Shown: positions 9,363-29,952, counted from the first letter of the stretch. The stretch: DNA of 64,000 nt from a virus (IMGVR_UViG_3300031992_000080:1-64000); one strand, 5' to 3'. Numbers and translations: made by a program. The notes: generated from the letters alone by a model not told the origin.

Positions 9363-9431
9363 GGCTTGGTTGTTTGGGTTTGGGTTTGGTTGGTGGATGT
9401 TCCGTGCCGCAGGCGCGGCACGGTGCAAGAC

Positions 9432-14704: not shown

Positions 14705-14734
14705 AATCTACCATAGGTGTGTTCCACCTGTCAA
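14705..14734 (-). promoter_or_regulatory. Sigma70-type leftward promoter
   Basis: TTGACA-18-TAGATT with TG extension; the operator lies in the spacer. Confidence 0.7.
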
Positions 14735-14810: not shown

Positions 14811-15041
14811 ATGTTGTTCGGATGTTTGTTGTTCGCCGGATTGTTCCTCTCGCTGATCATCCATGAAATCAAGGCGAAGGTTTGGCAGGAGGGACGCGGA
14901 ACGAATCCGAATCCGGCTGACAAACGGAAGAATCCATACGCGAACGACGAAGCATTTAACTTCAAATTCGGGTTCTGGCTTTATTTCGGATTTCTGATCA
15001 TAATCCTGCTTGGTCTACTCGGCTTCGTTGAGGACGATTAG
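14811..15041 (+). CDS. Lone rightward small two-helix membrane protein
   Basis: Hydrophobic N- and C-terminal segments; AT-richer than neighbours. Confidence 0.55.
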   Translation: MLFGCLLFAGLFLSLIIHEIKAKVWQEGRGTNPNPADKRKNPYANDEAFNFKFGFWLYFGFLIIILLGLLGFVEDD

Positions 15042-16168
15042 TTCTCGTCCGGCAGGTCGTCGAGCTTGTCCGGAGGGACGAGGATTTCCGGCGGCATGAC
15101 GCGCGCGTCCTCGGCCTCTTGTTGCGCGGAGGCGCCTGCTTTCGGAGCGGCCAGTCCGCACGCTTCGTCGAACCAGCTTGGCATGCCCTGGATGTTGAAC
15201 ACGATCGCCGTGCCGATGTTCGCGCCCTTCGCCGCTTGCGTGGCGCTCGTCTCGGCCGCTTTCCTTGCCGCGCTCACGGCGGCCGCCCCCTCCGGGTCGG
15301 CGCGCTCCAGGGCGAGTTCCAGAAGTTTGCTCTCGCGCTTTACTTGCGTCCCGATCTGCCCGTCCTCGTCTTTCGCCACGCGGCCGAAGACCGGGATTTC
15401 CTCGCCCTCGAGGACGCGGCGGCGCAGTTCGTCCTCGTAGAGCTGCTTCTGGGCGATCTGCCTCTGTTCGAGCGCGAGGTCGTAGAGCTTCTGCAGGCCG
15501 TCCGGGTCGGACTTGGCGAGCAGCCGGAGGCGCAGCATGGTGAGCCCGGCATGGTGTTCGACCTCTTCCGTCGGAAGTCCGCGAGCGAGCGCGCCGATAC
15601 CCTGCAGGATCGCCTGCTGGAAGCGGGCCAGGTGAGGTGCAAGGCCGTAGTTGCGGCGGTCCTCCAGGTTGGGGCCCGACGGCTCCTTCTTGTTGCGAGA
15701 GCCTTTGCCGTCCGCGCCGGCGCCGTTTTCCCGGTCGAGGACGAGAGAGGCGATGAGGTCGGCGGCGGTGTCCACGTCTGCCTGCTCCCCCTGCGTGTTC
15801 GGCTGGGGCCACTTGTCGAGCCATTCCGCAAGGCGGGCCGGCAGGGCGAGCGCCGTCTGCGCCTCCTTTGCAAGCCCGGTGTCGTCGAGTTGTTTCACGG
15901 GGACTACCTTCTGTTTCATGTGGCCTAGCTTCCAACGTTGGTATTTGATCGCCTCGTCCGTGTCCGCGTGACCGGGCGGCGGGTGGTATTCGGGGTTCGT
16001 CCGGGGTTTGATCCCTTCGCTCTTGTTGCCGAACTTGCGCTCGGCTTCGCGCGCTTTGTCTTCCTTGCGCGATTTCTTCCATGCGCGCCGGCCGCGCTCC
16101 ATCGCGGCGGACTGGTGGCGGTCGATCTGGTTGGTTGTCTTCGGGCGGCGCCCTTCGTGCGTTCGCAT
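15038..16168 (-). CDS. terS: Terminase small subunit-like protein
   Basis: YEDELRRRVLEG...PVFG......IGT..KRESKLLELALERADP resembles the TerS signature LEDEA.RRA.EG...YSD.LL..LL. Confidence 0.65.
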   Translation of the reverse strand: MRTHEGRRPKTTNQIDRHQSAAMERGRRAWKKSRKEDKAREAERKFGNKSEGIKPRTNPEYHPPPGHADTDEAIKYQRWKLGHMKQKVVPVKQLDDTGLAKEAQTALALPARLAEWLDKWPQPNTQGEQADVDTAADLIASLVLDRENGAGADGKGSRNKKEPSGPNLEDRRNYGLAPHLARFQQAILQGIGALARGLPTEEVEHHAGLTMLRLRLLAKSDPDGLQKLYDLALEQRQIAQKQLYEDELRRRVLEGEEIPVFGRVAKDEDGQIGTQVKRESKLLELALERADPEGAAAVSAARKAAETSATQAAKGANIGTAIVFNIQGMPSWFDEACGLAAPKAGASAQQEAEDARVMPPEILVPPDKLDDLPDEN

Positions 16169-16206: not shown

Positions 16207-16236
16207 TTGACTTCCGGCAGCCGCTGGTTGTAGTAT
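16207..16236 (+). promoter_or_regulatory. Sigma70-type rightward promoter
   Basis: TTGACT-18-TAGTAT with TG extension. Confidence 0.5.
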
Positions 16237-16303
16237 CCGCCCCGTCGCCGCAAAGCGGCGTGAATAGAAACATGTGTTGTTGCTAAAACGGCGCACAAAA
16301 GGC

Positions 16304-16339
16304 AAGCCGCCCCGGACGAGCGATCATCCGGGGCGGCTT
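16304..16339. terminator. Intrinsic terminator hairpin at the end of the early operon, possibly bidirectional
   Basis: AAGCCGCCCCGGA-10 nt-TCCGGGGCGGCTT; T-rich run on the minus side. Confidence 0.8.
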
Positions 16340-16362
16340 CCTTGTTGCGGGCTTTGTCTGGA

Positions 16363-16620
16363 TCAGCCGATGCCGTGGTAGCCCTCCCACTTTGCGGCCT
16401 CCTCCTCGGTGACCTCCTCGATCATGCGAACATGATACATGGGGTTGACGAGGTTGATCTGCCCGTATGGCGTGCCGTCCTCCCCGACCCAGACCTGGAG
16501 CCCGTAGTTCGAGGCGGGCGAGTTGCGGGTGGAGTAGACGCGGATATTCACGCCGTCGAACGTGGTGAGCACGGCTTTGTAGCGCTTGCCCATGTCAATG
16601 TCTGGAATGATCGGATTCAT
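16363..16620 (-). CDS. Hypothetical protein
   Basis: 85-aa ORF with AAGGAAG RBS. Confidence 0.7.
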   Translation of the reverse strand: MNPIIPDIDMGKRYKAVLTTFDGVNIRVYSTRNSPASNYGLQVWVGEDGTPYGQINLVNPMYHVRMIEEVTEEEAAKWEGYHGIG

Positions 16621-16662
16621 CTTGTTGCTTCCTTTGGTTTTGGTTGTTGTCGTTGCGTTCGT

Positions 16663-17004
16663 TCAGCCGAATTGCAGGCCGCGCGTGTGCAGGGCGTTGA
16701 TTGCGTAGCGGACAACATCTGCAATCCCGACCTTGTTGCGTCTGGCAATCCGTTCAATGATCTCTTTGTCTGCGTCGGACACGCAGATTGCCGTTAGTGT
16801 CCGGCGCGATTGTTGCACGGCAATCTTGCAGACCTTCTCGGATTTCTTGTCAATGATGTTGATCGCGACGCGAATGAGTCCGGCGGCGTCAGCTCCCATT
16901 TTCTGAAGTTCGTCAAAATTCGTCTTCTCGTCCGGCGAGAGGAGGAAGTTCACGTAGCGGGTCTTGGTTCGCGGTTTTGGCGTTGTTCTCATGGCGGTTT
17001 TCAT
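16663..17004 (-). CDS. Tandem RHH/CopG-like DNA-binding protein
   Basis: Two beta-helix-helix units (YVNFLLSPDEK...AGLIRVAI; AICVSDADKEIIERIA...IADVVRYAI). Confidence 0.65.
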   Translation of the reverse strand: MKTAMRTTPKPRTKTRYVNFLLSPDEKTNFDELQKMGADAAGLIRVAINIIDKKSEKVCKIAVQQSRRTLTAICVSDADKEIIERIARRNKVGIADVVRYAINALHTRGLQFG

Positions 17005-17031
17005 ATTATGTCTTTCCCCTTTCTATGTCAA
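17003..17031 (-). promoter_or_regulatory. Sigma70-type leftward promoter
   Basis: TTGACA-17-TAATAT (overlapping CATAAT). Confidence 0.6.
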
Positions 17032-17083
17032 GCGCGCCGGGGCGGCGGTTGCCCGCGCGCCCCTTGTTGCGTGCGCTTGTTGC

Positions 17084-17383
17084 TTATGACGGCGATCCGT
17101 GGAGCGGGTCTGGGCCGCTGATCTTCCGCTTGAATCCATCCCATGCTCTTTTGGCAAGCTCAGGCATGGCTTGTTGCAGGTCGGTGAAACGGACTGTGAT
17201 CGTCGGCCTACCTCCTTTGAAGTAGAGATAGACCGTCGCATCTTGCGGCCTCACCCAACAGCTCTCCGACACCTCCGGCCAACCAATCTCGTCCGGCTCT
17301 ATGTCAACTTCCGTCCCTGGTTCGTCATGCGAGAAAAGCCCAAGTTGCCCGTGCCATGTGCGGATGATTGATTTGATTTTCAT
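17084..17383 (-). CDS. Hypothetical protein
   Basis: Start MKIKSII after GGAGG. Confidence 0.65.
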   Translation of the reverse strand: MKIKSIIRTWHGQLGLFSHDEPGTEVDIEPDEIGWPEVSESCWVRPQDATVYLYFKGGRPTITVRFTDLQQAMPELAKRAWDGFKRKISGPDPLHGSPS

Positions 17384-17385
17384 GG

Positions 17386-17697
17386 TTAGTCCTCCTTGTT
17401 GTTGTTGTTGTTGTTCGTATTGAAGTTGTTGTTCGTCTGGAATTGGACATGACAATCGGCCAGTCTTTTCGTGAATAATCTCATTCGTTCTTCCGTTTCT
17501 CGTTCTCCGCACATGGAACGGACGATCATTCTGTTTCTCGGTTCTGCCGCATCCTCTCTCTGAATGGGAGCGAAATCCGCTTCCCATAGGTCTGCCGCAG
17601 AAGTCCCGACGAACATTTCGTCAAAGATTTCTCCGGCCTGTCTGAACGCAGGATCGTCACGGAAATCAAACGTCATTGTGGTTGTTGTCTTGCTCAT
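17386..17697 (-). CDS. Hypothetical protein with poly-Asn tail
   Basis: ORF; the AAC repeats also precede the next RBS. Confidence 0.6.
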   Translation of the reverse strand: MSKTTTTMTFDFRDDPAFRQAGEIFDEMFVGTSAADLWEADFAPIQREDAAEPRNRMIVRSMCGERETEERMRLFTKRLADCHVQFQTNNNFNTNNNNNNKED

Positions 17698-17954
17698 TTG
17701 CGAGTCTCCTTGTTGTGCTTCTTGTTCATGACGGCGTTCGTCTGGTCGGGCTGAAACTTGGCGAGGCAGATCGCGCGCGTCGGGATGCAGAACCGCGCGC
17801 AGTTTGAGTCCGTCCCGTGGATCATGTCGGGGCGGATTTCTGCGAGGTCTTCCGCCCGCCGCACGGCAACGGAAAATCCGTTCGCGAGGTAGATGGAGAG
17901 CTGATTTCCTTCGGGCCAGTTGGCGAGGAAGGTCTGGATGTGTTTCGGGTTCAT
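17694..17954 (-). CDS. Hypothetical protein
   Basis: AAGGAAA RBS; ATGA coupling. Confidence 0.65.
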   Translation of the reverse strand: MNPKHIQTFLANWPEGNQLSIYLANGFSVAVRRAEDLAEIRPDMIHGTDSNCARFCIPTRAICLAKFQPDQTNAVMNKKHNKETRK

Positions 17955-18022
17955 GGTTGTGGTTTCCTTTGTTGAGTGCGCCCCGCCGTCATGGCGGGGG
18001 CTTGCTTGTTGTCGGTTGCGGC

Positions 18023-18565
18023 CTAGCGGATCGGGCGTCCGTAGCAGTCCTTTCCGTCTTGCGCGGCATTCCGCGCCTTCTCAATGTCCGCGAGGTCGTC
18101 AAGCCCCCACGGGAAGGCTTCGTATGCGGCGCGCGAGACTGGGAAAAGCTCGCAGAGCTTATCTGCGGCGCAATGATAGAGGGTGCTCACGATCGCTTTC
18201 GCTTCCGTCTTTTCGTAATCGTCCGTCTCGCAAGACTGGTAGTTGTAGCATCCAAGAGCCTTGAGCAAGAAGCCGATGCCAGTAAGCCCGTTGAAGTCGG
18301 GCGCGCCATCGTTGACTTCCGCGAGGGAACCGGGCTTGATTCTGTCGCACCGGGTGTCATAGTGATACTCCGGCGCGGATTTGTTCTCGTTGTAGCGGAA
18401 ATTCACGGAGCGGTAGTTTTCGTTCCACAGAATCTGCCCGATCTGGTCTGGGTCTTCTTCGGCGCAGACGAGTTCGCCGTTGTTGTTGATTGCCCGGATT
18501 CCAAAGTGCTTCGCCGCAGAAACGAGGAAGTCAATGTGGGCTTTGCTTACGATCCATGCGCTCAT
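18023..18565 (-). CDS. Conserved mobile-element hypothetical protein
   Basis: MSAWIVS..HID.L...LW.EN..SVN.RY.E...L....Y.YQSCE pattern. Confidence 0.75.
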   Translation of the reverse strand: MSAWIVSKAHIDFLVSAAKHFGIRAINNNGELVCAEEDPDQIGQILWNENYRSVNFRYNENKSAPEYHYDTRCDRIKPGSLAEVNDGAPDFNGLTGIGFLLKALGCYNYQSCETDDYEKTEAKAIVSTLYHCAADKLCELFPVSRAAYEAFPWGLDDLADIEKARNAAQDGKDCYGRPIR

Positions 18566-18610
18566 GGTTTGTGTTCCTTTCTTTGTTGTTGGTTGTTGGT
18601 TGGGTGGTGG

Positions 18611-18853
18611 TTAGTGCTTCGGTGCGTAGAGCTTGCAGAGTTCGTTGAATTCCTCCGGCGTGAGCGGTTCGTCCGGCGCGTCCGTGTCGGTGTAGGTCAC
18701 GCCGCACTCAAGGTTCTTGAACGCGTCAACGGCGCGATCCCGCTCCTCTCCGTCCGTCCCAGCGATCCACTCCATGAGGAAAGCGCGGTATTCGCGCTTG
18801 GTCTTGAAGAGATGTTCTTGCCCGTGGGCTTTGATTCCTATTTTCTTTTTCAT
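18611..18853 (-). CDS. Hypothetical protein
   Basis: 80-aa ORF. Confidence 0.65.
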   Translation of the reverse strand: MKKKIGIKAHGQEHLFKTKREYRAFLMEWIAGTDGEERDRAVDAFKNLECGVTYTDTDAPDEPLTPEEFNELCKLYAPKH

Positions 18854-18859
18854 GTGTCC

Positions 18860-19072
18860 TTATGCGTGAAAGAGATCATCCATCGCTTCGCGGATCACCG
18901 CGTTCACCGCTTCAGAGATTGCGAGAGCGGCGCGAAATCCACCCTCGTTCATGCCGCTCAACTCGTCACCGATCATGTTGTTCATGGTTGTGATCGCACG
19001 ATCCAGTCCCTGCCAGTAGGCTTTTCTGGCGGTCTGGTCTTGTCTGATTTTTGCCTTCATTTCCGTTGTCAT
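18860..19072 (-). CDS. Hypothetical protein
   Basis: AAGGAG RBS. Confidence 0.65.
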   Translation of the reverse strand: MTTEMKAKIRQDQTARKAYWQGLDRAITTMNNMIGDELSGMNEGGFRAALAISEAVNAVIREAMDDLFHA

Positions 19073-19105
19073 GGTTTGTTCTCCTTGTTGTCTTTGTTGC
19101 GCGCC

Positions 19106-19525
19106 TTATTCGGCGGCTCGCTTGCCGAGTTCAAATCCGGCGGCTTCCCCGCGCGCGTCTTTCCACCGCCCGACAACCTCCGCGAGTTCGTCCTTGTTGG
19201 TGACGAGTTCGCCCCAGAAGTAGACGCGGCTTGCGCTTGCGTTCGCTTCAATGTTGAGCGCGTCAAAGTAGGCTACGCGGTCGGGACTGTCCAGATTGTA
19301 TGGGTCAAGCCCCGCTTCCTCTGCGACCTTGTAGGCGGCATTGAGCGCGAGATCGTTAAAGAGCGCGTTGCCGACGGCATCGTAAGGCGGCGGGAATTCC
19401 TCTAGTTTCTCCGCGACGAGATCGGGCGTAATGTCCCCGCCCCATGCGCGCGCCCATTCATCAAGCGCGGCGGTGTCCTCACGCCCCAAGCCGAGGGCGA
19501 GACTGATTGCGGTTTTCGTGTCCAT
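19106..19525 (-). CDS. Acidic hypothetical protein
   Basis: AAGGAG RBS; D/E-rich. Confidence 0.7.
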   Translation of the reverse strand: MDTKTAISLALGLGREDTAALDEWARAWGGDITPDLVAEKLEEFPPPYDAVGNALFNDLALNAAYKVAEEAGLDPYNLDSPDRVAYFDALNIEANASASRVYFWGELVTNKDELAEVVGRWKDARGEAAGFELGKRAAE

Positions 19526-19580
19526 TGTTCTTCTCCTTGTTGTTCTGCCGCGCGGGATGTTGGCGGCGTTTGTTGTTGTT

Positions 19581-19643
19581 GACTTCCCGCGACACGCCCC
19601 TGCGTGTTTCGGCGCGTAGTCGGCGCGCCATCATCGGGCGGGA
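19581..19643 (-). ncRNA. Hammerhead ribozyme, type I topology, variant core
   Basis: 5'-UCCCGC CCGAUGA U GGCGCG CCGACUA CGCGCC GAA ACACGC AGGG GCGUGU C GCGGGA AGUC; three 6-bp helices, GUC site at 19591/19590, loop II GACU complementary to 3' AGUC. Confidence 0.8.
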
Positions 19644-19658
19644 GGGGCGTATCGTGTG

Positions 19659-21176
19659 CTAGGCGGCAAGGCTCCTTTCCAGTTGCTTGCGGTGTTTGCG
19701 GAACAGTTCGGCAAGTCTCTGCGCAACTTCGCGCGCGTCTGCGGGCGGCGTTGTGTTCTTTCGGGCGTAGCATTGCTTCACCTTCCATCCGTCCCCGATC
19801 TCAATGTCCACTCGCCCTTCGTCCTTGCCAGCAAGGGCGAGACACACGCAGTTTTGCGCGGCCATGTTCGCGGAGTAGGATCCGCCGCCAATGCAGTTGC
19901 CCATGTTGTTTCCTTCGCGCAAGAATTCATCCTGCGAGGTGAGCCAGACGATCTGCCAGTCTCCGAGATTGAGCTTATTTTCGTTCTTCTGGACAAGCGC
20001 GCGAAGCTTCTCCACGAATTCCGCGATCAGCGCGTCCCGCTCCGCTTGCGTCCGCGCGTAGATTGCGCGTTGCTTTTCAAGCTCCTTCTCCCTGCGCGCG
20101 TTCGCACGCGCCCATTCGCGCTCCCGCCGCCGCATTTCGCGCATCTGCTTCTTGTGGCGAATGCGTTCCGCTTTCTTGCGCGCTTCGTAGAACGCGGCGA
20201 AGTCGGTCGGGTAGGCGGTGCAACGGGCGCGCAGGTCAAGCCCTTCAAGCTTCGCGTTCGTCATGGCTTCGCAATAGCGCCCCGCGTCAATGCCGTGCTT
20301 CACGCAGTAGGCGTAGGCGGCGCGGATCGGGATTTCGGTCGGGCGAGACTGCCGGACGGCGGAGAAGAACACGCGCGGCGCGTTCCTTGCGCGTTCGCGC
20401 TCCTCCACATCCGCAAGGGTGCGCTTCCCGCTCCGGCTCATCCACACTAGATCGTTCCAGTTGTAGCGCGTGGCGAGTCCGGGATTCTGGATCAGCAGTT
20501 TCATCAGCACCTTGTTGCGGGCGAGTTCCGCACATTTCTTCGGGTTGCGGACGGGAGAAAAGCGGTAGGCGTTGAAGAGTCCGGCCTTGACAAGAAGCTC
20601 GGTCTTCGGGTCTTTGGCGTAGGCGTAGAGGATTTCCGCCAGTTGCTTTGCGTAGTTCGGGCAGTAGTTAGGCCAATGCTCCGTTGCGAGGAGCGCGGGA
20701 TCATCTGCCGCAAGCGGCTTCCACCCGCAGTAGCGGTAGCGGGAGCGGGCGAGGAGGTCTGCGCGGGCGAGGCAGTCGGACGGCAAGGCCATCGTCACGC
20801 CGTTCCAATCAAACCAGTTGTCCTCATCATCTTCGCGCCACGCCTGGTGGCAATAGTAGCCGGAGCAAGTCTGGTAGATGTTGTGCTTCGTGTTGTAGGC
20901 AACATTCCAGTCCACACACCAACCCGCAATCCCCTTCCAGTTGAGATCGTGGATGTAGATTCTGCCCTTCGCCGGGTTGAATTCGGCAATGGGCTTGACC
21001 TCCTTCTCTCCCCTGCGGCTTGCGACCGTGACGAGTTCCAGTCCGTCACGCCCCACCTTGCGGAAAAGGGTTGTGAAGATCGTTGTCCTGCTTTTGTCGG
21101 GAATCTTGACTTTCTCCCGATATTCGCGCGCCGCTTTCGTGACGGCGCGCAGTTCGGTCTTGTTGAGTTTCTTCAT
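19659..21176 (-). CDS. pcfJ: PcfJ-like protein
   Basis: C-terminal WLTSQDEFLREGNNMGNCIGG.Y...IEI...W.V.Q...R.N; paired with PcfK. Confidence 0.85.
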   Translation of the reverse strand: MKKLNKTELRAVTKAAREYREKVKIPDKSRTTIFTTLFRKVGRDGLELVTVASRRGEKEVKPIAEFNPAKGRIYIHDLNWKGIAGWCVDWNVAYNTKHNIYQTCSGYYCHQAWREDDEDNWFDWNGVTMALPSDCLARADLLARSRYRYCGWKPLAADDPALLATEHWPNYCPNYAKQLAEILYAYAKDPKTELLVKAGLFNAYRFSPVRNPKKCAELARNKVLMKLLIQNPGLATRYNWNDLVWMSRSGKRTLADVEERERARNAPRVFFSAVRQSRPTEIPIRAAYAYCVKHGIDAGRYCEAMTNAKLEGLDLRARCTAYPTDFAAFYEARKKAERIRHKKQMREMRRREREWARANARREKELEKQRAIYARTQAERDALIAEFVEKLRALVQKNENKLNLGDWQIVWLTSQDEFLREGNNMGNCIGGGSYSANMAAQNCVCLALAGKDEGRVDIEIGDGWKVKQCYARKNTTPPADAREVAQRLAELFRKHRKQLERSLAA

Positions 21177-21186
21177 GTCGCACCTC

Positions 21187-22188
21187 CTAGAAATCAAAGA
21201 GGGTCATCTGCGGGTCGGGCTTCTTCGGCGCGGGCTTCGGGATCACGGGCGGTTTGTAGTTGCCGGACGGCGGTGTGTAGGGCTTGGGCTTCGGCGTCGG
21301 CTTCCACTCGCAGTTGAGAGAGTCCTCCTCAAAGTAGTGCATGAGTTCGCAGAAAACATCCTCGTCCTCCGCGAAGTATCCGCGCGCGCCCTTCTCGGCT
21401 TTTTTCTGCGCCCATTCGTAGAGGTGATTCGCCGCGCCTTGCAGTGTTTTCTTTCCCTCTATCTTCGCGCGGAGTTCTGGGCTTGCGTTCTTGTCAAAGT
21501 AGGCTTTCAGCCGCTCTTCCATGTGGTTCGTGGCTTTCCACTCCCACTTCGGCGGCTTCTCCTCCTCCGGCTTGTCGGCGGGCTTCTCGTCCGTCTTGTC
21601 CTCGCCGTCCTTGTTGTCCTCCGGCTCGGCGGGATCGGGCGGCGTGTTCTCGCCGTCCGGCTTCTCGGCGGTCTTCTCTTCGCCGCCGAAAACGGACGGG
21701 AGGTTTCTCTGCAACGCCGTGTCAAGAGAGATGTCTCCCCGCTCGTCATTGGTCAGCGGACGGATTGCGACTTCGCCGGAGTCAAGGATCGTCACTTTGT
21801 CCTCGCCGTCCGTGCAGTAGTCCCGCTCGTTCTCGTCATCGTAGACTCGCCATCCGTGCGACTCCGCGACCTCCATCCAGTTGCTCGGCGTGTCCCCGCT
21901 CTCGTTGAGCCAGTCCGCAAAATCCTGCAAGGTCTTGATCTCCGGCGCGGTCTTGTTGTCGGTCTGCGGCGCGTTCTGCGCTTCGGGCGCGGGCGCGGTA
22001 TGCTCCGGCTCGGCGGCGGGTTTGGCGGGCGCGGGTTCGTCCGGCTTCTCGTCCGGCTTCGGCGCGTCCGTGGTCTGCGGCGCGGGCTTCATCTGCGCCA
22101 TCATCTGCGAGACTGCGGCGAGTTTCGCCGCCATCTCTTGTTTCATGCGCTCAAGCTCCGCAAGCGCGTTCTGTGCTTCTTCGTTCAT
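21187..22188 (-). CDS. pcfK: PcfK-like (AcrIIA9 family) protein with long N-terminal extension
   Basis: KKTLQGA..HLYEWAQKKA.KG.....DEDVF..LMHYFEED...QMTLFDF. Confidence 0.8.
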   Translation of the reverse strand: MNEEAQNALAELERMKQEMAAKLAAVSQMMAQMKPAPQTTDAPKPDEKPDEPAPAKPAAEPEHTAPAPEAQNAPQTDNKTAPEIKTLQDFADWLNESGDTPSNWMEVAESHGWRVYDDENERDYCTDGEDKVTILDSGEVAIRPLTNDERGDISLDTALQRNLPSVFGGEEKTAEKPDGENTPPDPAEPEDNKDGEDKTDEKPADKPEEEKPPKWEWKATNHMEERLKAYFDKNASPELRAKIEGKKTLQGAANHLYEWAQKKAEKGARGYFAEDEDVFCELMHYFEEDSLNCEWKPTPKPKPYTPPSGNYKPPVIPKPAPKKPDPQMTLFDF

Positions 22189-22221
22189 GGGGTTTTGCCC
22201 TTGTTGTTGTTCTTGTTGTGT

Positions 22222-22307
22222 GGCTTGCCATCATCGGCGCGCGGGTTGCCGTCCCTGCGCGGACACGCGCCCCGCCGGAAAGGACGGCGGCGGGGGCGTG
22301 TTTCGGC
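22222..22307 (-). ncRNA. Hammerhead ribozyme, type II topology, same variant core
   Basis: 5'-GCC GAA ACACGC[CCCCGCCG..CGGCGGGG]C GCGUGU C CGCGC A GGG ACGGCAA CCC GCGCG CCGAUGA U GGC; GUC site at 22262/22261; helix II only 3 bp. Confidence 0.65.
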
Positions 22308-22311
22308 TTGT

Positions 22312-23148
22312 CTACTTCGCCGCCCCGCCCTCCTTCTTCTCGCCGTTGTTGCGGATCGCGTCTTGGATCGTCTGCGGCGCGCCCTTCGGCGTGTGCGCGC
22401 CGGAAATGATCTGGAAGATGCCGTCGCGCTCCTCGGTGCGCGTCTCCTCCATCTCCATCAACTCCCCGCCGTTGGCTGTGAGCTTCGCCGCGTCCTCGTC
22501 CCCCATCGTCATGCACTCAACGATGGCGGCGAGACTGGCGCGCGTCCATTGCTCTGCGATTACGCCGACGAGCGCAAGGTCGGGAATGCTCGTTGTCTCG
22601 CCATCCGCGTTGTGTCCGGCGAACACCGCCGCGCCCGCAATCAGCCGTTCGCGTCCGGCGTTGAGGAAAAGCGCAGTTCCGGCGGGGTTGACTCCAGAAA
22701 CATCCCAGAATGCGTCCGCAATCCACATATCGCAACCGCGCCCGATGTCAACGCGATCAATCATCGCGCCGATATGTCCGCGCAAGTGTTCGTAGGTCTG
22801 CCCGCGCGAGACTGCCCACAACTCCAAGCGCGTCTCCGCGTCTCCGTCCTTGTTCTCCGTGAACGGAAACGCGGTGAGGAGCAGGGCTTTCTCGTTGTCT
22901 TCCGTCCGCAGGGGATGCCCCTGCGCGAAAGTCCATGCGATTGCGGTCTTGAAAAAGTCCTTGCCGACAAGCCGCGCTTGGATTGCGCGGCAACGCGGAT
23001 CGTGCGCGTCCGGGTTTTGAAGAATTTCGGAGGTGTAGATTTCGCGCCGGAGCAAGCGCGGCGCGTTGTTGTTGTTGTTTTTCATGGCGTTTTGCCTTTC
23101 GGGGTTGGGGTTTCGTGAAAATGGTGGGATTGCGGTATTGCGGCACAT
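22312..23148 (-). CDS. DUF3846-like protein
   Basis: HLRGHIGAMIDRVDI....DMWI......VNPAGT.L......IAG.AVF.GHNADGETTSIPD. Confidence 0.6.
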   Translation of the reverse strand: MCRNTAIPPFSRNPNPERQNAMKNNNNNAPRLLRREIYTSEILQNPDAHDPRCRAIQARLVGKDFFKTAIAWTFAQGHPLRTEDNEKALLLTAFPFTENKDGDAETRLELWAVSRGQTYEHLRGHIGAMIDRVDIGRGCDMWIADAFWDVSGVNPAGTALFLNAGRERLIAGAAVFAGHNADGETTSIPDLALVGVIAEQWTRASLAAIVECMTMGDEDAAKLTANGGELMEMEETRTEERDGIFQIISGAHTPKGAPQTIQDAIRNNGEKKEGGAAK

Positions 23149-23168
23149 GGCTTGCAGGCTCCTTGTTG

Positions 23169-23249
23169 CTAGTTGTTGATCCCTGCGGCGGCGGCGTGTA
23201 GAATCACGGCGGCGGCGGTGTAGATTGCGGCGAGAATCGCGGCTTTCAT
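23169..23249 (-). CDS. 26-aa hydrophobic peptide
   Basis: Manual translation MKAAILAAIYTAAAVILHAAAAGINN; fills an intergenic gap; A/C-rich leader. Confidence 0.4.
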   Translation of the reverse strand: MKAAILAAIYTAAAVILHAAAAGINN

Positions 23250-23273
23250 TGTGTTGTTCGTGTTGGTTTCCGG

Positions 23274-24053
23274 TTAGTCCGCATAGTCCTCTGTGTAGGT
23301 CTGCGCGGGGTTGTAGATGTTCGTGCGGTCGGCGTAGTGGCTCGGCTTGGTGCGGAAATATCCGCTTTCGTCCGGGCGGCGCGTGATCGGCTTCGCGCCC
23401 GCTTTGATTCGGTATCCGAACGGGCTAGACGGATCGGGAATCGGGCGGACGCGCGCTTGCATGAATCCGCATTCTTCGCCCGTCTTTTCTAGCTCAATCA
23501 GAGAAAGGCTCTTGCCCGTATCCTTCAAAACGCCGTAGAAGTCATAAAAAGTCATGGAATAATGGAAGTGCGAAACAATCACTTTGCCCGCAAGGCTCTT
23601 CGCCTTGTTGCCGTCCGTCTCCGGCGGCTCTGGCGGCGTGTTCTTCGGCTCGGTGGCGCGCTCGTCCTTGTTGCGTTCTGGCGCGGGATCGTGCGGCGGC
23701 GTGTTCTCCGGCTTCCCTTCGCGTGCGTCCGGCGTGTCTGTAAATAAGTCCATTTGCCCGGCGCGCGGAAAAATCTCGGTCTGCCAAGTGCAAGGCGCGA
23801 ATCCCGCGCGCGTCTGGCGCGCGAGACTGCCGCTTGCGATTGCGGCGCGCAAGTAGTCAGCTTGTGCGTCCGTGAATTCCGGCGCGCGGTGCGTCTGCGC
23901 GTGCTTATCTGGCATGGGGTTGCCGAAAAGATCAACGGCGGCGGCGGGCGTGGTGTGCGCGCTCGTCGGCGTTGTCGCAATGGCGGCTTGGATTGCGGCG
24001 GGGTTCAAGGCGGCGGCTATTGCGGCGGCAATGGCGGCTTGCGTGGTCTGCAT
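23274..24053 (-). CDS. Hypothetical protein (Ala-rich N-terminus, SH3-like-looking C-terminal domain)
   Basis: GKVIVSHFHYSMTFYDFYGVLKDTGKSL.L.EL. Confidence 0.7.
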   Translation of the reverse strand: MQTTQAAIAAAIAAALNPAAIQAAIATTPTSAHTTPAAAVDLFGNPMPDKHAQTHRAPEFTDAQADYLRAAIASGSLARQTRAGFAPCTWQTEIFPRAGQMDLFTDTPDAREGKPENTPPHDPAPERNKDERATEPKNTPPEPPETDGNKAKSLAGKVIVSHFHYSMTFYDFYGVLKDTGKSLSLIELEKTGEECGFMQARVRPIPDPSSPFGYRIKAGAKPITRRPDESGYFRTKPSHYADRTNIYNPAQTYTEDYAD

Positions 24054-24073
24054 GGCGGGCGTTCCTTTCCGGG

Positions 24074-24496
24074 CTAGGCGGTGGCTCCGTCCGTGAAGCG
24101 GAGAATGTCGGCGGCGCGCTCGTCAAGTCTCGCGGCGCGGTTCACTTTGTCTGCGGCGTTCTGCGCGTCTGTGCATTCCGCCAAAACGAAAGCACCGGGC
24201 GCGGGGGCGGTGTTGTATCCCGTCCGGTCGCGGTCAATGATGAGATACACGGCGAAACGCGCGCCGGAATCGGGCGCGGTGTGCTCTGGCTCAATGGTGG
24301 CGGTTGTCCGCGTGCCGTCCGTGTGGTAGTCCCGGAATCCGGCAAGGTCGGCGGCGAGTTCGTCCGGCGTGGCGGCGGCGAGTTCGCGCGCGTATTGCGT
24401 GGCAATCTCCTCGCAAAACTGCGCGCGGGCGGCGCGGCGTTTCGTCTCCGGCGAGACTGCGGCGGGCGTGGGCGTGGGCGTGGCGGTGGTGTTCAT
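24074..24496 (-). CDS. Hypothetical protein
   Basis: GAAAGG RBS. Confidence 0.65.
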   Translation of the reverse strand: MNTTATPTPTPAAVSPETKRRAARAQFCEEIATQYARELAAATPDELAADLAGFRDYHTDGTRTTATIEPEHTAPDSGARFAVYLIIDRDRTGYNTAPAPGAFVLAECTDAQNAADKVNRAARLDERAADILRFTDGATA

Positions 24497-24527
24497 GGTT
24501 TTTTGCCTTTCGTGTTGTTCTGGTGGA

Positions 24528-25385
24528 TCAAGCGGCGGTTGCGTGGCGGATGATTCTGGAAATTCCGGATATGATTTCCGCTTGCATTTCGCGCGGGCTT
24601 GCGGTAAATGGAATGTAGATCGTTTGTGCGGGGTCTAGTCCAAGTGCCGCGCAAGCGGCGGTTGCCCCGATTGCATGGCAACGCCCGCTTGCGCTGTCAA
24701 AGTCCGAACCAGTCACGGCGTGAAGGTCTTGCAAGTCCATGTGTCCAATCCTGCGGGTCACTTCGGGGCGGGTTGCATACCATACGGCGGAGAGGTCTAG
24801 CGGTTCGCCGTGGCGTTTGGCGGGATAGTAGCTTGCAACTTCGCGGCAAGGGCGGCGGGTTTCAACGGCGTTCTCAATCCATAGGGCGGTAGAATATCCT
24901 CGGCGCTCAAGCGCCGAAACGGCGGCGGCGGCTGTCGCGCCCCGCTTCTCAAAATCAGTTAGCGGGGCGGTGCATGGGAGACAAGCGGCGAAGATGATAG
25001 TTGCAAGTTTCGCGGGGCGTGGTTGGCGGCGGCGACGCGTAAAAAAGCGCGCGTCTCCGTTTCCCGTCATAAAGTCCAGTAGGCGGGCGGGGTCTAGTGT
25101 CTCTCCGTCCTCGGCGTGTTGCCACTTCGCGCGCGTGTCCGTTCCGGTGATACCGTCTTCAATCTGGGCGGCAATCGTTTCGGCAAGGCGCGGGATTTTC
25201 GCGCTTGGCTCGTCCGTGGCGAGTGCGGGCACGGCGGCGGCAAGGGTATTTCCGTAGAAATTGCCCCTGCGGTTGCCTAGCTCGGCGGCATAGCGGGAAA
25301 TTTGGCTTGTTCCGCGCGCCTTGTCAAGCGCGTTTTGGACGAAATCGGCGGTTGCCGGGAAAATCCGTGTGAATGGTTCGGGCAT
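24528..25385 (-). CDS. vWA-like partner of the AAA+ ATPase
   Basis: G..LD..R.L......FF......TII.AAC......F...G.TA.A.V..LE..GY...LW; directly downstream of the AAA+ gene. Confidence 0.55.
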   Translation of the reverse strand: MPEPFTRIFPATADFVQNALDKARGTSQISRYAAELGNRRGNFYGNTLAAAVPALATDEPSAKIPRLAETIAAQIEDGITGTDTRAKWQHAEDGETLDPARLLDFMTGNGDARFFTRRRRQPRPAKLATIIFAACLPCTAPLTDFEKRGATAAAAVSALERRGYSTALWIENAVETRRPCREVASYYPAKRHGEPLDLSAVWYATRPEVTRRIGHMDLQDLHAVTGSDFDSASGRCHAIGATAACAALGLDPAQTIYIPFTASPREMQAEIISGISRIIRHATAA

Positions 25386-25401
25386 GGCGTTTTCTCCTAT
25401 C

Positions 25402-26535
25402 CTAGCGGGTCGCGGCGATAAATTCCTTGCGCTTCTGTTCTGGCATTCCTTCGGAAAAATCGTCCAGAATTGCGCGCGCGGTCTTGAAAAGTCCGGCGGC
25501 GGCAAGCTTTGAATAGTCAATAACCGTCCGGGTTGAAAAGAAAGTGCGGGTTATGTGGCGCGTTTCAACGGCGCGGCGCGCGGTGTCTCGCGCGTCAATA
25601 ACGGCGGCGGCTTTCGCTTCGTCTGCCGTGATGGCGAGCGCAAGGCGCTTTTCAAGTTCGGTATCGTAGTTGACTGGAAGATAGCGGAAGCGGTTTAAAC
25701 TGGCGGAGTCAAGGGCCGTCCTGCCTGTGTAGTCCTGTGTGGCTCCGTGCCCGGTGGTGTTTCCTGCGGCGAGAATGTAGGCCTGCGGATTCTTCTTGAT
25801 CCTGCCTAGGATCGGAAAGGAAAGCTCGCCGTTGGCAATTGCCGAATTGACGACAATTGCCGTTTGCGGATCGGCGGCGTCCAGTTCGTCAAATAGGAAA
25901 ACTCCGCCATTGCGATAAATGCGCGTGAATTCGCTTTCGTGGAACGAAAACGCAAGTTGCCCGTTCTCGGCGGGCTCTGGAATGAGTTTCCCGAAAATGT
26001 CGCTTGCGGAAACTTCGCCGGAAACGGAGAGACTTCCAAAACGCGCGCTTTCGTCCATGTCCGGGAAAAGGACGGCGGCGGCTTGGCGCGCAAGGTAGGT
26101 TTTTCCGCTCCCTGTCGGGCCGTAAAGGTAGCAGTTGACTCCGCAACGGATCCGCGCCAAAAGCTCGTTCAATGCGGGGTGCGCGGCTTCCCCTTCGGGA
26201 AGGGTGATTTCCTTCGGGATTTCGGGAAGGTGGAAATGCGTGATGTTCGGCGCGTGGGCGTTGGCGGCGGCTTCGGCGGCGGCGCGCGCGGCCTCGGCGG
26301 CTTCGTCCTTCGCCGTCTGGATTTCGGCGCGCAATGCGTCAATTTGCGGCGCAAGGGCGGCGGCGGCGCCGTTGGCAATGGCGGCAACGGCTCCGGCGGC
26401 GGCGGCAAGGGTCGCGGCGGGATCGGCGGGCGGGGTCTGCATGGTCTGCGGCGGGGTCTGCTTCGGGGCGGTGTCTCCGCCGAAAAGATTGCCCTGGCGC
26501 GCGGCTTCGGTAAGTTCTGCAATGGTGGTGTTCAT
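25402..26535 (-). CDS. MoxR/CbbQ/CobS-like AAA+ ATPase
   Basis: GPTGSGKT, LFDELDAAD, AAGNT.G.GA..DY.GR..LD.ASL.RF. Confidence 0.9.
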   Translation of the reverse strand: MNTTIAELTEAARQGNLFGGDTAPKQTPPQTMQTPPADPAATLAAAAGAVAAIANGAAAALAPQIDALRAEIQTAKDEAAEAARAAAEAAANAHAPNITHFHLPEIPKEITLPEGEAAHPALNELLARIRCGVNCYLYGPTGSGKTYLARQAAAVLFPDMDESARFGSLSVSGEVSASDIFGKLIPEPAENGQLAFSFHESEFTRIYRNGGVFLFDELDAADPQTAIVVNSAIANGELSFPILGRIKKNPQAYILAAGNTTGHGATQDYTGRTALDSASLNRFRYLPVNYDTELEKRLALAITADEAKAAAVIDARDTARRAVETRHITRTFFSTRTVIDYSKLAAAGLFKTARAILDDFSEGMPEQKRKEFIAATR

Positions 26536-26561
26536 GGTGTCGGGGGTGGTTGGTTGGGTGG

Positions 26562-26924
26562 TTAGGCAATCTCCATTTGTTCGGGAGCGATCCTTGCTAG
26601 AAAGCGCGTCCACGCGCAAGCGGCCGGGAATCGTCCGGCGGCGTGGGCAAGGGGGTTTGATTCGGCACGCGCGCAAGCCGCGCGCAATGCGTCAAGCCGT
26701 CCCCTTTGCATTGCGTCTTTAATTTCGTCAACTTCGCGGACAAGGGCGGCGCGCGCGGCGTTCGGGCGCGGCACGGAAAAAGCGGCGTTCTCGCAAGCGC
26801 GCGCCGCTTCCCGGTAGATCGCAAAAACATAGTAGGCGCGAGAGATTCGCGCGGGGGTGGCTGTCTGCACAAGCCGCTTTTTATGTTCGCGGCGCGCGGC
26901 GTTCGGGCGGGGGGTGGCGTTCAT
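26562..26924 (-). CDS. Hypothetical protein, first gene of the leftward early operon
   Basis: GAAAGG RBS just downstream of the promoter. Confidence 0.6.
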   Translation of the reverse strand: MNATPRPNAARREHKKRLVQTATPARISRAYYVFAIYREAARACENAAFSVPRPNAARAALVREVDEIKDAMQRGRLDALRAACARAESNPLAHAAGRFPAACAWTRFLARIAPEQMEIA

Positions 26925-26956
26925 GGTTGGTGCCTTTCGTGGTCTTGCGGGGCGGT

Positions 26957-26985
26957 AGTCTAGCATAGTCCGCTTTTTATGTCAA
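26957..26985 (-). promoter_or_regulatory. Strong sigma70-type leftward (early) promoter
   Basis: TTGACA-17-TAGACT with TG extension. Confidence 0.75.
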
Positions 26986-26999
26986 GCGTTTTTTTATGT

Positions 27000-28250
27000 C
27001 TTTTTTTCTGCGTTGTTCTTTCTTGCGAAACGCCCCTTGTAGAGACTCTTTTCGTAAAATGCCGTTTTCCATTTTAGCCTTTATTCATGGGCTTTTCATG
27101 CGTTCTCGCCTTGCGTTTTCGCGCGTCTCAATCATGCGCGTTTTTCGTAGTTCTAGGCGTGTCTAACAATCGGCTTTTTAGCTTCGTCTAACATAGCTAA
27201 ATCCCGCTAAATAGTAAATCTGTCTTTACAATTGTTTGGCGCGTCTAAAGCATGGTCTGGCGGGGTTCGTCCGGCGGGGTCTGCTGGCGTTCCGGCGGGG
27301 CGGTTCTCTCGCTCGTTCGTCCAGCGTTCTCCCCTCCCCTCGCGCCGGGGAAGGTGGGAGCGGGGAAGGGGGTAGGGGGTAGGGGCGGGGGGTGGATGGG
27401 GGTAGGTAGCAGGGCAACGGCAACGGATCGGAGTAGGCGTGTAGGTAGGTAGGTAGGTAGGGCGGTAGCAGGGTAGCAGGTGGCGCGCGCGGGGACGGCA
27501 ACGGCTGGATCGGGGCGGGGAGATGGGGCAAGGCTCGTCAAGGCGCGGCAAGGCTCGTCCGGGCTTCATGCGGGTTTCTGTCTAGCGGTCTGGAAGGGCG
27601 GCGGGTAGTCTGGCGGGATTGGGGGGAGGGCCGCGCGCGGTGCGGTGTGTTGGCGTTTTTCGGGGCGCGGGTCTATGTCGCATAATCCCGCATTCCGGCG
27701 CTTATAAACTCGCCATGCGTGCGGCGGATTGCGGGCGGGCGGGCGTCCGGTGGGACTGTTGCGGGCCGTCTGGGTATCCGTCCGGCCTGCCCCGTCGGGC
27801 CGTCGGGGCCGTCCGGCGGGGGTTGTTGCGGCGTTTTTAAGCCGTTTTTCGGCAAAAAACACGCCCCGCAAAATTATAAGTATTGATTTTTCAATATGTT
27901 ATGCGGATAATGGGGAGGGTTGAAAGCCTTTCTGGAAGGATCAAAGGAAGGCGCGCGGGCGGGAATGAGAAGGGAGGGGAGGACGGGCAAGGCGGGCGGC
28001 ATGGGGGAGCGGGAAGGGAGGGAGGAAGGGAGGCACGGCTACCCCGTCCCCCTCCCCGACCACACCGCCGACCGCCGCCCCGCGCGGGTCCTGCGGGGGA
28101 CTTTCTCGCACACTGAGGTCGAAGTTTGAAAAGGAGCTACTGCTTGGGACGGGTGGGTCGTGTGGGCGCACCTGCGAGGGCGCGCGCGTGCGGGTGCGAG
28201 GTTGGTGTCCGGATTTTTTTCGGGAATGGTTGCCGTGGTGGATACTGTTT
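27000..28250. other. Non-coding inter-arm region, candidate genome terminus or packaging region
   Basis: No credible ORF; AT-rich patches, G-runs at 27347-27402, (GTAG)5 at 27441-27460, palindrome TATTGA-TTTT-TCAATA at 27881-27896, purine-to-C-rich switch near 28035. Confidence 0.5.
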
Positions 28251-28254
28251 TGGC

Positions 28255-29952
28255 ATGGGGAACCAAGCGAACAGAGGGCTGCGGCGAACGGCTGCGGGGA
28301 CGCGGAAGGATCGCGTGGAGCGGTCGACGCGCGTGATTGGATACGTGCCGACGCCGACGGGGCTGCGGTTCCACAACAGCCGTGCGCTCGTGAAGGGTGC
28401 GATGGGGCCTGTTGGGAGCGGCAAGTCGGTATTCTGCTGCGAGGACATCTGGATAAAGAGCTGCACGCAGGTGCCGATGGCGCAGATCGACCCGGCGTGG
28501 GGGATGCGGGTGCGATACAGCAAGTGGCTTGTGATCCGGAACACGTATTGGGACTTGCAGCAGACGACGATCAAGACGTGGCTGGACTGGTTTCCGCAGA
28601 CGAAGATGCGGGAAAGCCAGCCGTTGGGCGGTGTTCTGGAGTTCGAGCATCCGAGCAACGAGCGGCTTCGCGCGGAGGGGCGGGAAGACGAATGCACGGC
28701 GGTGCGGATCGAGCTGGTGTTTCTGGCGCTGAACAAGGAAGAGCAGGTGCGGCACCTCAAGTCGCTGGAGGTGTCCGGGGTGTGGATCAACGAGGCGAGC
28801 GAAGTGCCGCTCAAATACGTGAGCCGTGCGTTCGAGCGAACGGGGCGTTTTCCGAGCAAGAAGGCGGGCGGGCCGTTCAAGAACCTGGGGATGATCATGG
28901 ACACGAACCCGCCGAGCGACACGGGGTGGTGGTACCAGCTTGCGGAGGTGCGGCGGCCGCAGGGCTACGAGTTCTTCCGGCAGCCGCCGGCGGTGCTGCG
29001 GCGCGAGAAGGGTGGCCGGATCTGGTACGAGCCGAACAAGGGGCAGGATCCCGGGATTCCCGCGGCGGAGAACGTGGAGAACCACAACGAGGGGTGGGAA
29101 TACTACATGCGGCAGACCCGTGACGGGGACCATGCGCGGATCAAGGTGTTCCTGATGGGGGAATACGGGACGACGGTGAGCGGAAAGGCGGTGTATCCGC
29201 AGTATTCGGACGAGGCGAACTACCTCGACGAGACGCCGGAGCCGTGGTGGGGGCTTCCGCTGTTCATGGGGACGGACTTCGGGAGGACGCCGGCGACGGT
29301 GCTTTTGCAAGTGCTTCCGTCCGGGAAGATCGTGGTTCTGGACGAGATATGCGGGGAGGACATGACGATCGGGGAGTTCTGCGAGCAGCTTCTCCTTCCG
29401 CGTCTCATCACGAAATACCGGTTTGCGGAGGGGATGCGGGTGATGAACTTCGCGGACCCGGCTGGGGCGAAGCCGAACGAGACGGACGCGCAGGGCGCGA
29501 TCTACCGGATGAACGAGCTGGGGATTCCGACGGTGCCGTGTCCGGTGACGGGCAACAGCCCGCTGCTGCGGATCGAGGCGGTCGCGAGCGCGCTTCGGCG
29601 GCGGATGGACGACGGGAGCGCGGGCCTGGTGCTTTCGCGCAACTGCCGGCGGCTGCGGGAGGGTTTTCTGGGGCGGTATTACTACAAGACGGCGGCGAAT
29701 TCGGACGCGGCGGACGAGCGCGTGGCGGCGAAGCCGGACAAGAACATGTTTTCGCACCCGCACGACGCGCTGCAATACGGGGTTTTCGGGGCGACGCACC
29801 AGAGCGGGGAATCGATGTTCGACGTGAGCGGGCGAAGCAACCGGCTGTGGGTGCCGGACGGATTCGGAGGCTACCGGCTCTCGGGCCCGGTGCCGACGGC
29901 GGGCGGCGCGTGCGGGACGGAAGCCCGCATTTCCATGGCGGGCTTCTGCTGA
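28255..29952 (+). CDS. terL: Terminase large subunit
   Basis: GPVGSGKS Walker A; GVWINEASE Walker B; DTNPP; GTDFG RNase-H motif; HPHDALQY. Confidence 0.97.
   Translation: MGNQANRGLRRTAAGTRKDRVERSTRVIGYVPTPTGLRFHNSRALVKGAMGPVGSGKSVFCCEDIWIKSCTQVPMAQIDPAWGMRVRYSKWLVIRNTYWDLQQTTIKTWLDWFPQTKMRESQPLGGVLEFEHPSNERLRAEGREDECTAVRIELVFLALNKEEQVRHLKSLEVSGVWINEASEVPLKYVSRAFERTGRFPSKKAGGPFKNLGMIMDTNPPSDTGWWYQLAEVRRPQGYEFFRQPPAVLRREKGGRIWYEPNKGQDPGIPAAENVENHNEGWEYYMRQTRDGDHARIKVFLMGEYGTTVSGKAVYPQYSDEANYLDETPEPWWGLPLFMGTDFGRTPATVLLQVLPSGKIVVLDEICGEDMTIGEFCEQLLLPRLITKYRFAEGMRVMNFADPAGAKPNETDAQGAIYRMNELGIPTVPCPVTGNSPLLRIEAVASALRRRMDDGSAGLVLSRNCRRLREGFLGRYYYKTAANSDAADERVAAKPDKNMFSHPHDALQYGVFGATHQSGESMFDVSGRSNRLWVPDGFGGYRLSGPVPTAGGACGTEARISMAGFC

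Follow-up and report, generated by a model that had tools for sequence, protein, structure and literature searches.

Short palindromes are near-absent from one transcription unit beside the terminase gene of an uncultured phage

The block, its genes, and the extent of the site void

We analyzed a window of 64,000 nucleotides (64 kb; IMGVR_UViG_3300031992_000080:1-64000) from an uncultured virus of the sheep rumen. The window is the first part of a 76,109-bp single-contig record, described as linear by IMG/VR and as 100% complete by CheckV. This phage genome has two divergent gene arms: a leftward arm, running from ~27 kb down to ~0.3 kb entirely on the minus strand, and a rightward arm, which opens with the large terminase subunit at 28126 and continues with an SU10-type portal and then structural genes. 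The subject of this report is the part of the leftward arm that adjoins the terminase gene, an 11.6-kb block of ~17 genes, all on the minus strand, that is free of TCGA. The TCGA sites that flank it, at 16556 and 28119, are 11,563 bp apart, and the second-largest gap between TCGA sites in the genome is 786 bp. Other short palindromes are missing or rare in the same place, and we refer to TCGA, GCWGC, ACGT, CCGCGG, CGGCCG, and GCCGGC as the six-motif set. The block and its surroundings contain the following features (lengths in amino acids [aa]; pI, isoelectric point):

15038-16168, minus strand: 376-aa protein with no family, first gene past the block
16304-16339, minus strand: terminator-like hairpin, 16-bp stem, -43 kcal/mol, z -7.3, U-rich tail
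16363-16620, minus strand: last block gene, downstream of the promoter at 17003-17031
16557-28118: block without TCGA, from site counts
16663-17004, minus strand: penultimate block gene, weak RHH/repressor hints, downstream of the same promoter
17003-17031, minus strand: predicted second promoter, TTGACA-17-TAATAT, from a consensus match, in the graded left edge
17671-28118: strict zone, one site of the six-motif set (CGGCCG at 26621) versus ~154 expected at genome density
19659-21176, minus strand: PcfJ-domain protein, 505 aa
21187-22188, minus strand: acidic protein, 319-333 aa, with a weak PcfK-like C terminus below the curated cut-off
22312-23148, minus strand: 278-aa protein, weak DUF3846 match below the curated cut-off
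24528-25385, minus strand: DUF7192 protein
25402-26613, minus strand: AAA_5 (MoxR/CobS-like) ATPase, phrog_249
26562-26924, minus strand: first block gene, 120 aa from the ATG at 26924, pI 10.8, no family match
26957-26985, minus strand: predicted sigma-70-type promoter, TTGACA-17-TAGACT with an upstream TG, from a consensus match, conserved in the close relative L009
27297-28118: non-coding tract separating the block from the terminase gene, G-rich on the plus strand and of low complexity, with a (TAGG)n run
28126-29952, plus strand: large terminase subunit, first gene of the rightward structural arm, with TCGA back at 28119
30021-32486: SU10-type portal, after the terminase gene
57694-74187 (genome coordinates): 5,497-aa polyvalent protein at the end of the rightward arm, with LPD23 (three stretches), ART-PolyVal, and ddrB-ParB domains

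At the density of TCGA elsewhere in the genome (7.5 per kb, with ~480 sites outside the block), 87 sites would be expected in the block, and GCWGC would be expected 35 times. GCWGC is absent from 16218 to 28277 (12,061 bp) and ACGT from 17671 to 28342. CCGCGG, GCCGGC, and CGGCCG are almost missing, with reduced counts of GGCC, CGWCG, and CCGG. The borders of the block are sharp to within ~1 kb; the left one is graded, with six sites of the six-motif set within 16.34-17.67 kb, and site density is normal from the gene at 15038-16168 leftwards.

The TCGA and GCWGC voids had been noticed in an earlier reading of this DNA made without database searches (here, the sequence-only reading). Its TCGA-free interval, 16512-28119, was correct at the right edge and reached 44 nucleotides too far at the left, where there is a site at 16556. 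The interval it gave as free of GCAGC and GCTGC (16221 to ~28278) agrees with the counted gap, and we count 11 TCGA in 8401-9600, where it had found at least ten. It had also described GGCC and CAG/CTG as thin, which holds for GGCC (23 versus 74) and for CAG on the plus strand (79 versus 147) but not for CTG (135 versus 129). ACGT, CCGCGG, CGGCCG, and GCCGGC, all near zero, had been overlooked, as had the low counts of CGWCG and CCGG.

The block is laid out from promoter to terminator. The predicted promoter at 26957-26985 has a perfect-consensus -35 element, follows an A-rich stretch and TTAGAC repeats, and lies just upstream of the first block gene, whose product is 59% identical to that of the first leftward gene of another relative, L016. 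Directly after the last block gene comes the hairpin at 16304-16339, the strongest in the region. In L009 this hairpin is conserved, and one of its base pairs shows a compensatory change. The right end of the block is a ~1.2-kb non-coding stretch made up of the 27297-28118 tract and ~330 bp with the TTAGAC repeats and the A-rich stretch. Transcription diverges from the tract on both sides, as the sequence-only reading had described in placing the right border at non-coding DNA with promoters pointing away from it.

Three small open reading frames (ORFs) in this low-complexity tract, at 27207-27569 and 27566-27862 on the minus strand and at 27920-28129 on the plus strand, are probably not genes. 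The tract itself is G-quadruplex-like, with (TAGG)n and GGGGAGGGG runs; similar sequence occurs at the start of L015 and at the end of the distant relative G001:C1, and in relatives, too, such a tract lies upstream of the terminase gene. A 30-bp element is found at 17384-17413 in the window and at 5706-5735 in L009, different places in the two relatives. Contigs from sequencing run X1 tend to break at 17385-17424 and 28005-28066.

Independence from codon usage and continuing selection

The void is independent of the proteins encoded and of codon usage. As a null model, synonymous codons were permuted within each gene, 300-1000 times, keeping the proteins and the per-gene codon usage. This null is conservative, because avoidance has already shaped the codon usage. 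The counts in the block were as follows:

TCGA: 0 observed, 33 expected
GCWGC: 0 observed, 30 expected
ACGT: 3 observed, 18 expected
GGCC: 23 observed, 75 expected
CGWCG: 15 observed, 41 expected
CCGCGG: 0 observed, 15 expected
CGGCCG: 1 observed, 14.5 expected
GCCGGC: 0 observed, 10 expected

No permutation matched the observed count for any of the eight motifs. Under the same null, TCGA, GCWGC, and CGWCG showed no depletion in the left arm outside the block, in the structural arm, or in the giant gene for the polyvalent protein. ACGT was almost entirely lost in the block (z -4.9) and showed only a slight signal outside it (z -3.3 in the structural arm and ~-1.3 in the other two parts). Amino-acid or GC content, named in the sequence-only reading as an explanation that would undo it, does not account for the depletion, since permutation still predicts 33 TCGA and 30 GCWGC.

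Synonymous codons are rerouted in the block, as that reading had also claimed. NTC codons make up 55% of F/L/I/V codons in block genes, but only 2 of 72 before a codon starting with GA. The first codon of Ala-Ala pairs is GCA or GCT in 0 of 91 cases, versus 24% where another residue follows. Elsewhere in the genome, neither the NTC choice nor the GCA/GCT choice depends on context.

Palindromes account for five of the ten most depleted 4-mers in the block. The 27297-28118 tract, which is non-coding, has no site of the six-motif set versus 9.3 expected from dinucleotide shuffles, an expectation that strand asymmetry may inflate. Together, these observations place the constraint on double-stranded DNA. 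On the coding (minus) strand of 17671-27296, the non-palindromic words ACGAC (1 observed, 17 expected) and CGACG (4 observed, 25 expected) are also low, and the listed palindromes account for neither; CAGC is at 7 observed to 40 expected on the coding strand of the block. Avoidance in this genome has two tiers, the block-only set of words and a genome-wide set consisting of GTAC, CCWGG, GGWCC, GGSCC, TTAA, and CTSAG. GTAC, for example, occurs 21 times in the whole genome, compared with ~165 expected under codon permutation.

The close relative L009 provides a view of how the void has been maintained. It was found by a protein search (PcfJ 86% identical) and lies on a 77,235-bp contig. Over 8,681 aligned bases, its block differs from that of the window by 796 substitutions (9.2% divergence), and its first 11.1 kb contain 3 TCGA, 2 GCWGC, and 0 ACGT, with normal density past 11.1 kb. 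In a drift test, the 796 substitutions were redistributed randomly, with base and codon position matched, in 500 simulations. Random placement created on average 14.8 TCGA, 12.8 GCWGC, and 8.9 ACGT sites; the real substitutions left 2, 2, and 0, and none of the 500 simulations gave counts as low. The control words GATC, CATG, TGCA, CTAG, and AGCT fit the neutral expectation, and outside the block TCGA sites have been both gained and lost between the two genomes. Purifying selection against new sites is still acting in the block. Because the void is kept in a relative that is 9% diverged, with new sites far below neutral drift, a passive relic of horizontal transfer is not its sole cause; this also removes the possibility of a recent island, which the sequence-only reading had held open against itself.

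Relatives, genome ends, and gene content

A positional counterpart of the block exists in a distant relative. The 77,569-bp genome G001:C1 encodes a terminase that is 48% identical to that of the window phage and has the same two-arm layout. In the terminal 2.9 kb of its leftward arm, beside the terminase junction, observed versus expected counts are 1/11 for TCGA, 0/7 for ACGT, 1/9 for GATC, 1/11.5 for GCWGC, 8/30 for GGCC, and 8/32 for CCGG. CATG, TGCA, CGCG, and GCGC are normal in this zone, and the first 3 kb on the terminase side are normal as well. None of the window genes has a homologue in the site-poor zone. PcfJ homologues with 34-37% identity are encoded in G001:C1 and in another relative, L010, where, as in the window, a PcfK gene precedes PcfJ; the PcfJ genes of both genomes are rich in TCGA. 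These sequence comparisons suggest that the void is tied to position rather than to gene content. Among the IMG/VR relatives L001-L007 (terminase 38-56% identical), there was no TCGA void upstream of the terminase gene. G001:C1 is a complete-looking phage genome of the same group that was binned with a Verrucomicrobia metagenome-assembled genome, which is a lead to the host only.

The non-coding tract at 27297-28118 is a candidate region for the genome end. Independent assemblies of two relatives, each ~77 kb, break at this junction. The L009 contig starts at the window equivalent of 27297 and ends at that of 27321, with no overlap. In G001:C1, the contig start lies 955 bp ahead of the terminase gene, and the ends have 69 bp in common, with one mismatch, a pattern unlike that of an exact k-mer overlap. 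In another relative, a 16-kb contig opens 336 bp upstream of the terminase gene. In well-studied phages such as lambda and T7, the terminase-proximal end is packaged first, and ejection begins with the DNA that went in last; by likeness to these phages, the block would be the first part to enter. The k-mer depth of the contig carrying the block equals that of its flank (10.9 versus 11.3 for the neighboring contig in run X1), so the block is not a long terminal repeat. It is also unduplicated in the 76-kb record.

PHROGs and Pfam scans of the block proteins gave family matches only to AAA_5, DUF7192, and PcfJ, plus the sub-threshold PcfK and DUF3846. The sequence-only reading had described the cargo as small genes of anti-defence type. 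Instead, 7 of the ~17 genes encode proteins of 259-505 aa, and none matches a known anti-defence family. The first block product has a pI of 10.8, unlike the acidic DNA mimic Ocr, and matched no family. Acidic proteins of 139 aa (pI 4.3) and 319 aa (pI 4.6) do occur deeper in the block, with no recognizable folds, and ESM Atlas look-ups for two orphan block proteins gave no usable match. No nuclease family was detected in the block by the PHROGs and Pfam scans, and no base-modification gene was seen among the proteins scanned.

The sequence-only reading had also called for a search for a methyltransferase, and none was found in the phage genome. Six Pfam families of DNA methyltransferases were searched in six frames with no match; for MT-A70 (PF05063), the controls were also unmatched, so that part of the search is uninformative. 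With no methyltransferase found, the ~480 TCGA sites outside the block need another form of protection.

Leftward of the gene at 15038-16168 are replication and recombination genes (DnaC-like, SSB, and RecE/YqaJ-like). A third predicted promoter, with a perfect -35 element and an upstream TG (TTGACA-18-TAGATT), lies outside the block at 14705-14734 on the minus strand. Its position at the head of the replication genes suggests that host polymerase probably also reads the middle region. On the other side, relatives carry extra DNA in the N-terminal part of the terminase gene, at 28416/28417, amounting to 966 letters in a run X3 contig and ~470 bp in L016 (3756-4225), which may be an intron, intein, or homing element. 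Scanned against Rfam at E<=0.1, the 14-30 kb region matched no family, hammerhead ribozymes included. G001:C1 has a segment homologous to the giant polyvalent protein (35% identity).

Judged from its genes, the virion is of the podovirus type with an SU10-type portal. It has no close relative among cultured phages; the nearest portals, at ~30% identity, belong to podophages of Rhizobium, Roseobacter, and Pelagibacter. Near-identical DNA is present in sheep and bovine gut metagenomes, and megablast of the block and the structural arm gave 0 matches among 50,697 phage records.

Proposed staged delivery, its rivals, and comparison with known systems

A restriction cut anywhere kills a phage. Avoidance that is confined to one region therefore makes sense only if the other regions are not exposed simultaneously. 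The reading we favor, with a probability of roughly 0.6, is that the block is the part of the genome that is unprotected in the cell before the phage switches off host restriction, the cause being staged delivery with the block first. The terminase-adjacent end (~27.3-28.1 kb) would go in first, and host RNA polymerase would start at the 26985 promoter and transcribe leftwards, along the direction of entry. DNA past the ~16.3-kb terminator would enter or become accessible only after block proteins had neutralized Type II-like restriction enzymes, with entry either coupled to transcription or paused. Selection would strip palindromic sites (TCGA, GCWGC, ACGT, CCGCGG, CGGCCG, GCCGGC, and partly GGCC, CGWCG, and CCGG) from the block alone, and sites that the protection cannot cover (GTAC, CCWGG, GGWCC, TTAA) would be avoided genome-wide. 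The avoided words would correspond to restriction specificities of the host. The sequence-only reading had taken the boundary to name these restriction-modification (R-M) specificities as TCGA and GCWGC, which is too simple, as the avoided set has about ten words and not two; its interpretation of the block as a first-entry region is, as a whole, partly supported.

A more specific version is a good deal more tentative. The phage may belong to a podovirus lineage of ruminant guts, with an SU10-type portal and two-stage delivery, in which the 11.6-kb leading operon encodes a novel, broad countermeasure against Type II enzymes. Candidates for it are the AAA_5/DUF7192 pair, the PcfK/PcfJ pair, and the acidic orphan proteins. 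If this were true, the two tiers would separate restriction systems that the phage can neutralize (TCGA, GCWGC, ACGT, CCGCGG, and others) from those that it cannot (GTAC, CCWGG, GGWCC, TTAA), and the length of the void (11.6 kb here, ~3-5 kb in the distant relative) would gauge the amount of DNA exposed before protection takes hold.

Several observations weigh against staged delivery of the block. No known anti-restriction family was found among the block proteins in the PHROGs and Pfam scans, nor was a homologue of T5 A1, A2, or dmp found among the block ORFs taken as genes. An RNA polymerase of the PF00940 family was unmatched in the genome, as it was in the control genomes, and none appeared in the PHROGs scans. 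L016, with a terminase 82% identical, does not avoid TCGA in the 3.5 kb upstream of its terminase gene, and L012 (low GC, terminase 56% identical) has no sharp block and avoids GATC on both sides; with no comparable block in either, the trait is confined to some lineages. (Apparent GCWGC and ACGT gaps in L016 were not significant under codon permutation.) As to the genome end, Logan contigs of runs X1 and X3 bridge the 27.3-28.1-kb junction, which is expected for concatemers or terminal repeats and is also compatible with no end there. The record of the window phage itself is broken elsewhere, with no end repeats or overlap and an ORF spanning its ends, so its ends are probably not physical ones. 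The low-complexity, G-rich tract could itself cause the contig breaks in the relatives.

The whole genome might also enter at once, with the block alone left outside a protection that covers the rest, either a virion protein coat or a base modification kept from the early region; the block would then have to escape cutting through its sequence. The lack of a methyltransferase means that the rest of the genome needs some such protection, and the giant polyvalent protein (5,497 aa; ddrB-ParB, ART-PolyVal, LPD23) encoded at 57694-74187 is a possible DNA coat. Polyvalent proteins are thought to be co-injected, and this one probably is. We nevertheless consider this explanation unlikely, because no known mechanism would exclude exactly one promoter-to-terminator unit, beside the terminase junction, from protection. 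The scanned proteins included no base-modification gene product, and the Dar proteins of P1 work across the entire DNA rather than regionally, according to the citing passage in PMC12455610. A less likely variant keeps staged entry but takes the words to be targets of one or more early nucleases of the phage itself that degrade host DNA, as in the pre-early stage of T5. During first-step transfer, T5 does break down the DNA of its host, and what spares its own is unexplained (PMC10644984). Here, however, about ten palindromes would require several nucleases, no nuclease family was detected in the block, and the DNA entering later would need protection all the same.

The block could be a module from another element, for example a conjugative one with genome-wide avoidance, and its void inherited rather than positional. 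Its k-mer usage and GC content at third codon positions (GC3) do differ from the rest, the PcfJ and PcfK families are named after conjugative-plasmid genes, and relatives have, for the most part, non-homologous early genes, suggestive of module exchange. Against this, the void has been actively kept in two lineages since their divergence, and the L009 drift test refutes inheritance as the sole explanation. The borders also coincide with the promoter region and terminator of this phage, the non-coding tract is site-free too, and the evidence from more distant relatives (TCGA-rich PcfJ homologues in L010 and G001:C1, and a site-poor zone with other genes in the corresponding position) is hard to reconcile with an acquired void, so that we give this origin little credence. 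Least probable of all is a constraint on RNA or translation, in which early mRNAs dodge a sequence-specific RNase or are tuned for translation. The low coding-strand counts of non-palindromic words (ACGAC 1/17, CGACG 4/25, CAGC 7/40) would fit it, and codon adaptation has been reported for plasmid leading regions (PMC13478746). Yet the words that are fully eliminated are palindromic, they are also missing from the non-coding tract upstream of the promoter, and the codon-permutation null already preserves the codon usage of each gene.

Staged delivery of the block would place this phage beside systems in which the principle has already been published. T5-like phages are restricted only via sites in the first-step-transfer (FST) region, according to the passage of PMC10644984 that cites Davison and Brunel 1979. 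As in the T5 FST, we see a segment of ~8-12 kb, here putatively terminal, with sites absent inside and tolerated elsewhere; the protective factor is unexplained in T5 too (PMC10644984). The T5 region differs in lying in a ~10-kb long terminal repeat with two opposed operons and A1, A2, and dmp, whereas the block is single-copy, reads in one direction, has no homologue of T5 pre-early genes, and belongs to a phage of podovirus type with an SU10-type portal. The evidence differs in kind as well, being experimental for T5 and, here, the evolutionary footprint of about ten words. Since it is neither a long terminal repeat nor a carrier of T5 pre-early homologues, the block does not belong to the T5 system.

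The layout resembles that of the early (class I) region in T7 and of leading regions in Autographiviridae such as Murciavirus. In both, a host-type promoter lies a few hundred bp from the leading end (putative here), the early genes run in the direction of entry (as proposed here), and a terminator closes the unit. In Murciavirus, Type I motifs count only in the region injected first, and the authors propose sub-genomic selection on leading regions (PMC12455610). The block differs from T7 and Murciavirus in having no Ocr-like first gene and in that no single-subunit phage RNA polymerase was found (controls were also unmatched). The published cases concern Type I motifs, and ours short, Type II-like palindromes. 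The terminase gene, in contrast to T7, adjoins the block and is divergently transcribed. The layout is T7-like and the behavior T5-like, with many Type II sites tolerated outside the block.

Leading regions of conjugative plasmids, which are enriched in anti-defence genes, share with the block genes of PcfJ/PcfK type and, if our reading is correct, the status of first-entering DNA. Plasmid DNA enters single-stranded, however, and among 1,751 Enterobacterales plasmids surveyed, leading regions were not consistently depleted of short palindromes (PMC13478746), in contrast to the near-total depletion seen here. Genome-wide avoidance of short palindromes under R-M selection, as known from phages in general, is represented in this genome by GTAC, CCWGG, GGWCC, and TTAA; the block adds a second tier that is confined to one transcription unit. 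What is notable here is the near-total loss of about ten words, the sharp border, the two tiers, and the occurrence in a lineage whose injection mechanism has not been studied.

Selection by restriction on part of a genome, which has been demonstrated experimentally in T5- and T7-like phages, would thus be readable from sequence alone in an unrelated, uncultured lineage. The same regional codon-permutation and neutral-drift tests are applicable to viral metagenomes, where they could find staged injectors and list the restriction specificities that these phages have faced. In this phage, the border would delimit the exposed DNA, predict which end enters first, and point to ~17 genes in which to look for a broad anti-Type II function. 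A second, unrelated system of this kind would give a new handle on how T5 protects the DNA that enters later.

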